Positions 37,150 through 37,440 are shown, numbered from the stretch's first letter. The stretch: 64,000 nucleotides of DNA from a virus (IMGVR_UViG_3300010409_000003), one strand, 5' to 3'. Program-made: numbers and translations. Notes: generated from the sequence alone by a model not told the origin.

Positions 37150-37440
37150 TTATCTTCTTTTTCTCGCTATATGCTCGTCTGTTTAGTTTCTTTAGTCTTT
37201 TAACTTAGTTAGTATAACTAGTTAGTAACTATAGTGATCACTTAGGTAGCTACTATAGTTACTAATCTATTATAGTCTTTAAAGTATCTTCTTTAATATA
37301 CTTGTCGATTATCAACAACACGGACATTCTAAAGGGCTACAGAAGGATTGTCCTCTACAGACCGCATTCCTATGTTAATATTTAGAGCTTACCGAGATGT
37401 CGATTATCAACAAGACGGTGAATAAGTAATTATCTATGTT
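37150..37440. repeat. right copy of the about 300-bp inverted regulatory module (partner 6305..6600); two TGTCGATTATCAACA operator-like sites (about 37311 and 37390) and an AGTGATCACT palindrome
   Basis: See 6305..6600. The reverse complement aligns block by block. Confidence 0.8.

Follow-up and report, generated by a model that had tools for sequence, protein, structure and literature searches.

Positions 37150-37424 form the right-hand member of a pair of non-coding inverted repeats of about 275 bp, which bound a 31-kb segment of early genes in a marine phage. Each arm carries two near-invariant 21-bp dyad sites, whose spacing differs between copies by about one helical turn. The reading we favour, at a probability of about 0.45-0.5, is that this module has a role in transcriptional control and that the winged-helix protein encoded beside it is the protein that binds there. 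The pair of arms also appears to be a substrate for recombination, a point absent from the earlier note on this DNA; the arms have exchanged flanks among relatives, which is good evidence between lineages.

The window, by which is meant the whole 64,000-nucleotide stretch of DNA analysed, comes from a novel marine myovirus-like phage of low G+C content, for which a search of 50,697 phage records returned no nucleotide relatives. Its primase-helicase shares 46-56% identity with the enzymes of Pseudoalteromonas phages J2-1 and H101, of Pseudomonas phage phiPMW and of several Vibrio phages, its capsid protein bears a distant likeness to that of Alteromonas phage PT11-V22, and the host is probably a marine gammaproteobacterium. 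The genes are arranged in blocks A, C1, C2 and B (Table 1), and the window contains only two divergent promoter regions, with one arm of the module in each. Phage H101 has 216 nt of intergenic DNA at the equivalent place, without the module. In more distant relatives of T7 size a Zn-ribbon gene lies upstream of the primase-helicase, but comparable palindromes are absent.

Table 1. Positions of the module and of the features around it, counted from the first letter of the window
Feature	Position	Strand	Details
Block A	1-6200	minus	start of the replication block; runs on 51.5 kb with DNA polymerase A
P_A, left-arm outward promoter	6261-6233	minus	TTGACA-17-TACAAT; replication block
Left arm	6309-6586	minus	proximal site 6315-6335, distal site 6410-6430, spacer type 2
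AGTGATCACT, left arm	6494-6503		
Block C1	6799-17371	plus	small genes of early type
Winged-helix protein	7582-7926	plus	ORF predicted from 7570, with a conserved MIKKDF start at 7582
Non-coding iteron region	17.4-19.3 kb		between C1 and C2
Block C2	19278-36866	minus	RNA ligase, PIF1 helicase, Dam methylase, lysozyme
Putative block C2 promoter	36900-36928	minus	TTGCAT-17-TATACT; 27 nt upstream of gene 36624-36866
TTGCTACTGTT iteron	36970-36980	minus	single exact copy here
AAGATAA/TTATCTT-rich (GATA) stretch	37020-37160	both orientations	7 exact words
Perfect inverted repeat, 12 nt	37113-37124 / 37133-37144		within the GATA stretch
Distal block	37150-37302	plus	part of the repeated module; from alignments and repeat search
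TTCTTTTTCTCGCTATATGCTCGT	37155-37178		in distal block
Imperfect inverted repeat, 23 nt	37213-37235 / 37252-37274		in distal block
GATC palindrome AGTGATCACT	37233-37242		in distal block
Distal 21-mer site TGTCGATTATCAACAACACGG	37303-37323	plus	core a 15-bp near-palindrome, TGTYGAT-W-ATCRACA
Spacer	37324-37397		begins with conserved ACATTCTAAAGGGCT, rest variable; allele type 1
Weak inward promoter-like site	-35 at 37354-37349, -10 TAGAAT at 37331-37326	minus	AGGACA-17-TAGAAT, 9/12
Proximal site	37391-37419	plus	21-mer TGTCGATTATCAACAAGACGG at 37398-37418 between ACCG...CGGT
P_B, outward sigma-70-type promoter	37479-37507	plus	TTGACA-17-TATACT, 11/12
Zn-ribbon protein	37547-37747	plus	66 aa, CxxC...CxxC; first gene of block B
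Block B	from 37547	plus	Zn-ribbon protein, then structural genes

The earlier note had described the region as the right-hand copy of an inverted regulatory module. The pairing is real: 37150-37424 matches 6586-6309 on the opposite strand with 77.0% identity over 287 columns (E = 9e-48 for a search space of the whole window), and in a MAFFT alignment the arms are 71.5% identical within the module (37156-37425), against 38% and 46% in the flanks. The term 'regulatory' holds to the extent that there is an inverted pair in a divergent promoter region with dyad sites under purifying selection, but does not extend to operator status. No ORF of more than 36 aa lies within 36867-37546, and the module has no Rfam match even at E <= 5. 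Its distal block carries 12-mers of the TAGTTAGTA type and has an A+T content of 72.8%, compared with 69-72% in other intergenic regions; neither a covarying base pair nor a conserved RNA structure was found among eight copies of it. Searches with TTTTTCTCGCTNNNNGCTCGT, another conserved motif, led beyond L004 and L014 to unrelated contigs only; these two are among the metagenomic relatives described below.

The sites within the module had been placed at about 37311 and 37390 and called operator-like. Both are present and exact, at positions slightly different from these: TGTCGATTATCAACA occurs at 37303-37317 and 37398-37412, with left-arm partners at 6321-6335 and 6416-6430. With up to three mismatches allowed, 12 matches are found in place of the 2.1 +/- 1.7 seen in shuffles, none of 100 of which reached 12. 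The true repeat unit is a 21-mer, TGTCGATTATCAACAA[C/G]ACGG, whose two copies in the right arm lie 95 bp apart. They have the same orientation, being direct copies of one imperfect palindrome and not mutual complements. Each module has two of them, and a search of the 64-kb window, L034 and L064 gave no others.

These 21-mers (TGTYGATTATCAACAASACGG) are near-invariant across the window and the metagenomic copies, though the proteins of these lineages are only 53-85% identical to those of the window; the sites are therefore under strong purifying selection. In an alignment of eight copies, the proximal site (ACCG...GT.GA.TATCAACAA.A.GGT) is conserved on a par with the -35 hexamer TTGACA. Several relatives have it as a palindrome of 31 bp, CACCGTCTTGTCGATTATCAACAACACGGTG, and the markers of asymmetry in the palindromes have been flipped piecemeal from copy to copy. 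Conservation of this strength is what binding sites for a sequence-specific protein would show, but the word 'operator' goes further: no repressor was identified, and the distance to the outward promoter is variable.

Folded as single strands, the sites of the window reach -2.8 and -0.3 kcal/mol, no better than shuffles (z = -0.4 for the proximal site, at -2.8 kcal/mol), and the best reading is that they would act as duplex DNA, of a predicted protein-binding type, rather than as hairpins. Several other identities for the sites were considered and rejected. By eye, a T-run follows the proximal palindrome on neither strand, as a terminator would require; comparison with the motifs of Fur, FNR, CRP, LexA, Fis, IHF and H-NS gave no convincing match; and in TTGCTACTGTTGTAT, which resembles the repeat handle of Cas12a, only three stem pairs could form. 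None of 185,579 bacterial and archaeal genomes contains the 21-mer. The 17-mer perfect palindrome turns up in such genomes at the level expected by chance, in taxa that are not related to each other, so that neither a host regulon nor a clue to the host is indicated.

The distance between the two sites is 95 bp in four copies of the module, 94 bp in one, 96 bp in two and 86 bp in two. Both copies with the 86-bp spacing come from metagenome 3300038701, and their spacers are equal in length and unrelated in sequence. The step from 86 to 94-96 bp is one helical turn, which suggests a need for both sites to lie on one face of the DNA; the spacings amount to few independent observations, since all the copies are homologous. 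In the right arm the spacer is relatively G+C-rich (59.5% A+T, against 71% for the intergenic region); between copies it is only 36-71% identical. It occurs as two alleles, type 1 (CTACAGAAGGATTGTCCTCTACAG) and type 2 (CTGTAGCC.ATTTAT.CTCTG), each of which is found with both C-side flank types and with both outward-promoter types.

In each arm the 21-mer sites face outward and adjoin a near-consensus sigma-70-type promoter. That of the right arm, P_B, is preceded by an AT-rich UP-like stretch (78% AT) and drives the Zn-ribbon gene and the structural block behind it, and the outward -35 TTGACA is invariant in eight of eight aligned copies. Direct control of the outward promoter by the sites is unlikely, since the proximal site is centred at varying distances from the -35 (48, 49, 49, 66, 72, 73, 76 and 77 bp), without helical phasing. 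A weak inward promoter is possible within the spacer, its predicted start falling on the distal site with the other site some 90 bp upstream, in a geometry resembling that of lac O1/O3. The inward -10 has the form TANNNT in five of six sequence variants, where it reads TAGAAT, TAAAAT, TATTCT or TAACTT, the exception being L076 with TAGAAC. The left arm, L004 and L078 have poor -35 hexamers; promoter-like matches in the region are no more frequent than in shuffles. The putative C2 promoter was read by eye and is not on the promoter scan list (its first hexamer matches at 3/6), and the stretch that contains it is conserved in L014 and L074.

Linkage of its gene to the module makes the winged-helix protein the best candidate for the binder, and on this ground it is the protein most likely to recognize the 21-mer sites. 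This early gene adjoins the module in all relatives in which the C1 side is visible, as the first gene in L076, L077, L078 and L079 and as the second in L080 and L081. The homologues are 69-79% identical, and no further ones were found in IMG/VR. In profile searches the protein matches the N-terminal DNA-binding domains of PHROG replication initiators and DnaD-like loaders (E 8e-8 to 2e-4), and Pfam HTH_36 only below threshold (E 0.02). An AlphaFold model (five sequences) has winged-helix topology at a pLDDT of 68, with weak Foldseek matches to MarR and BlaI repressors, DnaD-N and RepA_N initiators, all with E of at least 0.008. The Zn-ribbon protein is a second candidate. Its gene is present 3' of every B-type copy of the module, and the protein has no Pfam match and no homologue among isolated phages.

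In the mechanism that we propose, the core of the module would be the two 21-bp sites, each with a 15-bp dyad centre (TGTYGATTATCAACA-ASACGG), separated by a whole number of helical turns. A phage protein that is dimeric and sequence-specific, most likely the winged-helix protein, would bind both sites cooperatively and loop or wrap the 71-80 bp of spacer between them. The effect is likely to be transcriptional control at the boundary between the early blocks C1 and C2 on one side and the replication block A or the structural block B on the other; one possibility is that binding would shut off the weak inward promoter, with its start on the distal site. Crossovers in the conserved blocks that flank the diverged spacer would invert the 31-kb early segment while leaving every promoter-gene pairing intact; inversion of this segment has taken place repeatedly in this phage group.

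The case for inversion comes from nine further copies of the module in metagenomes, found by searching for the sequence pattern, for protein homologues and for exact proteins. IMG/VR supplied L014 and L004/L034; L067, L068 and L069 have the module upstream of Zn-ribbon homologues; L074 was found via the first gene of block A; and L076, L078 and L081 were found via the winged-helix gene, as was L077, a near-identical contig from a second assembly that is counted with L076. A first metagenome scan gave nothing, and a second gave three single-site contigs, which are taken as chance matches since they have no homology to the proteins of the window. With M for the module, the order of the window is seen as C2-M-B in the 20-kb locus L034, and as A-M-C1 in L078, from the same metagenome as L034, and in L076 and L077. 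The reciprocal order is seen in L014, with C2 genes-M-A, in L074, with a C2-type promoter and GATA region-M-A, and in L081, with the Zn-ribbon gene of block B-M-C1 genes including that of the winged-helix protein. Relatives thus carry all four combinations of flanks (A-M-C1, C2-M-B, A-M-C2 and C1-M-B), from which it follows that the early segment has been flipped on more than one occasion.

This comparison runs across different phage lineages and in part over short contigs, L081 being 1.7 kb long at 3.7x coverage. L014 and L081 are probably the two junctions of one inverted genome, since L080 shares its metagenome with L014 and has a winged-helix protein identical to that of L081. The module of L014 is, through the spacer, 71% identical to the right arm and 47% to the left, and beyond the proximal site 60% identical to the left arm and 44% to the right; its breakpoint maps at or adjoining the proximal site. 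A crossover at the proximal site is also expected to leave type-1 spacers with C2 and type-2 spacers with C1, as found in three putative genomes. In L076, where type 1 stands beside C1, and in L074, where type 2 has a C2-type flank, the exchange must have fallen on the spacer's opposite side. The lineages thus differ as to which side of the spacer was the point of exchange, and there is no single defined crossover site. The primase-helicases of L014 and L076 are both about 85% identical to that of the window, yet the two differ in orientation; orientation is thus independent of overall similarity, which implies at least two inversions or ongoing flipping. Inversion can be tolerated since every block keeps its own promoter.

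Homologous exchange within the conserved blocks is the simplest mechanism for these inversions. Neither Pfam and PHROG searches of the C1 and C2 proteins nor the precomputed Pfam tables for the start of block A and for neighbouring contigs yielded a recombinase. The Logan assembly of SRR5035895, which contains the same phage, breaks exactly in the shared 32-mer, GATTATCAACAACACGGACATTCTAAAGGGCT, and gives no linkage across it. At its outer ends the 31-kb segment carries a 34-nt terminal inverted repeat; an origin of the arms as transposon ends was rejected, since the C1 and C2 proteins include no transposase by Pfam or PHROGs, no target-site duplication was visible by eye, and the segment is integral to all relatives.

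Whether the two arms co-evolve had been raised before. In favour, the two arms of the window have private substitutions in common: both read ACGGACATT where other copies read ACGGATATT, and each proximal site carries ACAAGACGG. They also share a 19-nt block, GTCTTTAAAGTATCTTCTT, which the relatives lack, and the L004/L078 pair has in common TAAAAT, the 86-bp spacing and a promoter distance of 48-49 bp. In a distance matrix of the distal block, however, identity within genomes (81%) only marginally exceeds that between genomes (79-80%), so that concerted evolution of the arms is suggested but weakly signalled.

The GATA/TATCTT-rich stretch beside the module, to which attention had been drawn earlier, is confirmed as the densest in the window: 37020-37160 holds seven AAGATAA/TTATCTT words, where the window averages 0.27 per 141 nt. 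Stretches rich in GATA are likewise present in L014, L074 and L081, and are absent from the left arm. An iteron at about 36970 had further been said to connect the region with the locus at 17.4-19.3 kb. The connection is real but thin: there is a single exact copy here, and a variant of the iteron recurs in three relatives. Allowing one mismatch, TTGCTACTGTT has 10 matches in the window, against 2.55 expected, and apart from two 1-mismatch matches the others lie in 17503-18854. The copy at 36970 resembles those at 18547 and 18677 over about 25 nt with one indel, and is not conserved in L014. The variant, CCACTGTTCGTTCCGAAC at 18834-18854, recurs in intergenic regions of L014, L074 and L081, and is present as CACTGTTACTTCGTAAC at 6601-6617 and in L076. 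One motif family is thus common to the divergent control regions and to the non-coding region at 17.4-19.3 kb, which holds seven iterons in two opposed arrays.

The nature of the winged-helix protein also bears on a quite different role for the 21-mers, as initiator sites of a replication origin duplicated in inverted orientation, much as SPP1 has oriL and oriR and HSV-1 has oriS in its inverted repeats. The winged-helix protein, with or without host DnaA, would bind them, and negative supercoiling from the divergent promoters would help to open neighbouring DNA for the T7-type primase-helicase. The best profiles of the protein are indeed those of phage initiator and DnaD-like loader N-domains, its fold matches include DnaD-N and RepA_N, and its gene adjoins the module in relatives; each site holds TTATCAACA, an 8/9 match to TTATCCACA, the DnaA box consensus; the modules fill the only two divergent promoter regions of the window; and the phage encodes a T7-like primase-helicase and DNA polymerase A. 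An origin is the main rival to transcriptional control, and the sites suit it nearly as well, but we rate it clearly less probable. Each module has just two sites, 86-96 bp apart, in place of a tight array of at least three iterons. No AT-rich unwinding element stands out, the distal block having 72.8% A+T against about 70% in other intergenic DNA, and the protein, of only about 105 aa, is a DNA-binding domain without a helicase-recruiting part. The region at 17.4-19.3 kb, with its seven iterons, is a better candidate for the origin. A more elaborate version, in which the module is a protein-dependent flip-flop and initiation site at once, with the winged-helix protein bound to the phased 21-mers, synapsing the arms, frequently inverting the early region in every infection and perhaps also firing an origin, as for HSV oriS in its repeats, seems to us improbable.

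Dedicated site-specific inversion of the Gin/gix, Hin/hix or FLP/FRT type, with the sites as crossover points for high-frequency flipping, would account for short inverted dyad sites that border a segment found both ways among relatives, for the breakpoint of L014 at or adjoining the proximal site and for the piecemeal flipping of asymmetry markers in the palindromes. It is nonetheless a poor fit, and we think it very improbable: searches of the C1 and C2 proteins (Pfam, PHROGs) and of the precomputed tables brought up no recombinase; breakpoints fall on both sides of the spacer, and homologous exchange would give the same picture; and, as inversion alters no promoter-gene pairing, no switch is apparent. 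The known sites of serine and tyrosine recombinases have cores of even length with a crossover region of 2 bp or 6-8 bp, unlike the present dyad with its single central base. About as little weight is due to the view that the repeat has no sequence-specific function of its own and is a recent duplication of a promoter region kept alike by gene conversion. The substitutions private to both arms and their shared 19-nt block, which relatives lack, are what gene conversion would leave, but the 21-mers are near-invariant across lineages whose proteins are only 53-85% identical, next to a spacer that has diverged beyond 50%, and this requires selection on the sites themselves. Least probable of all is that the module encodes or templates an RNA, such as a leader or small RNA, or the repeat, spacer and repeat of a CRISPR-like mini-array. 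Two direct 21-mers do surround a variable spacer, and the 130-nt stretch folds with z-scores of -0.8 to -4.2, but this signal stems from the palindromes themselves and the sites are not complementary; Rfam gives no match at E <= 5, and eight copies contain no covarying pair. The spacers, of 71-80 nt against 26-72 nt in CRISPR arrays, are homologous among the phages as two alleles and are not unique acquisitions, which argues against a repeat-spacer array.

Transcriptional control through the winged-helix protein, our preferred reading, makes the module comparable to several known arrangements, although the literature consulted describes no phage counterpart. Looping repression uses pairs of operators such as gal OE-OI and lac O1-O3, the latter 92 bp apart. 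The module likewise has two dyad sites about nine helical turns apart, one of which would overlap the start of a promoter-like sequence between them, and its spacing shifts by one turn (86 against 95-96 bp). It differs in that no repressor has been identified, in that the enclosed promoter is weak and not in every copy, and in that the unit is duplicated in inverted orientation 31 kb apart in a phage of lytic type. In iteron-type phage origins the initiator gene is adjacent, as in lambda (ori and O) and in SPP1, where oriL and oriR are bound by G38P. Here, too, dyad sites lie near a gene resembling an initiator DNA-binding domain and, as in SPP1, there are two distant copies per genome; unlike those origins, each copy of the module has two wide-set sites and no clear AT-rich unwinding element, and the protein has no domain beyond the winged helix.

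Inverted repeats that act as a flip-flop are found in plastid genomes, the yeast 2-micron plasmid, the L and S isomers of HSV-1 (with oriS inside) and the L segment of Halobacterium phage phiH. As in these, the module bounds a large segment found both ways, and its repeats are placed between divergent promoters, in DNA that is regulatory or may be an origin. In contrast, the present arms measure only about 275 bp and share no more than 77% identity, the two orientations are so far known from different related lineages only, and no dedicated recombinase was found. The G segment of Mu and the C segment of P1, inverted by Gin and Cin, are 3-4 kb switches of tail fibres with an adjacent serine invertase and an enhancer. 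They share with the module the principle of a phage segment bounded by short inverted sites; here the segment comprises 31 kb of early genes, with no invertase found and no expression switch apparent. The module is thus a variant of looping operators, iteron sites and the inverted-repeat flip-flop rather than a new category.

The module provides a concrete and strongly conserved cis-element, together with a candidate binder, in a group of uncultured marine myoviruses distantly related to H101, J2-1 and phiPMW. It also has a bearing on the evolution of gene order in phages, in that a short and imperfect repeat of control DNA has repeatedly flipped a 31-kb region with its operons intact. A practical consequence is that assemblers break, or may mis-join, contigs at the repeat. 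If flipping is ongoing within populations, these phages would be a rare instance of tailed phages with genome isomers, and if it is driven by a protein, the lysates of a lytic phage would be mixtures of two genome isomers.

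A better candidate for the origin of replication than the inverted control-region repeats (the modules) is the 1.9 kb non-coding region at 17372-19277, which lies at the point where the two early gene blocks converge. The copies of TTGCTACTGTT(GTAT) in this region form two opposed arrays, and TATAAG words occur there by the dozen. Elsewhere, as well as here, there are intergenic repeats of 40-75 nt that belong to one family, sharing the core CTTAGAATGGCT, and some of its members are followed by a CTGAG...CTCAG hairpin. For the octamer TTAGAATG the count is 11, where chance would give 5.0, and in both modules it forms the -10-like element adjoining the distal site.

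Features located in the window
Feature	Position	Strand	Detail
TTGCTACTGTT(GTAT) array	17503, 17635, 17781, 17889	+	
TTGCTACTGTT(GTAT) array	18551, 18681, 18844	-	
CTTAGAATGGCT-cored repeats	5816, 8154, 11827(-), 18146, 18365		repeat families D4, D7, D14, I3, I7
Pentapeptide-repeat + DUF5758 protein	16389-17000	+	
D12-class (Dam-type) adenine methylase	27607-28443	-	
Group I intron	55942-56231	+	Rfam RF00028, 77.7 bits

Both modules also carry the GATC-containing palindrome AGTGATCACT (37233-37242 and 6494-6503), and GTGATCAC is present too in the module copies of the related contigs L081 and L076. The phage encodes an adenine methylase. On the 51.5-kb contig L064, which continues the replication block of the same phage beyond position 1, there are genes for DNA polymerase A and for a protein with an Nmad5 domain, a hint of hypermodified DNA bases.

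A Hint/intein-like N-terminus begins the 798-aa ORF at 42692-45088 (+), whose homologue on the related contig L034 is matched in two separate pieces. Since a Hom_end_hint domain also lies inside the L076 primase-helicase (5119-7491 of that contig), inteins in this group of phages move from one essential gene to another. The ORFs on either side of the group I intron, 54844-55953 and 56284-57177, resemble two parts of a single, split tape-measure gene; at this locus there is 89.6% identity over 96 nt to DNA of Pseudoalteromonas phage H101 that carries no annotation. Twelve tandem 15-nt units (16455-16679) code for the pentapeptide-repeat protein.

The Logan assembly of SRR5035895 (k=31), in which the same phage is represented by contigs L063, L064, L065 and L066, is interrupted on each of the four sides of the 32-mer shared by the modules. 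Assemblies made from short reads of this phage group will therefore break up at the module repeat, or could be mis-joined there.
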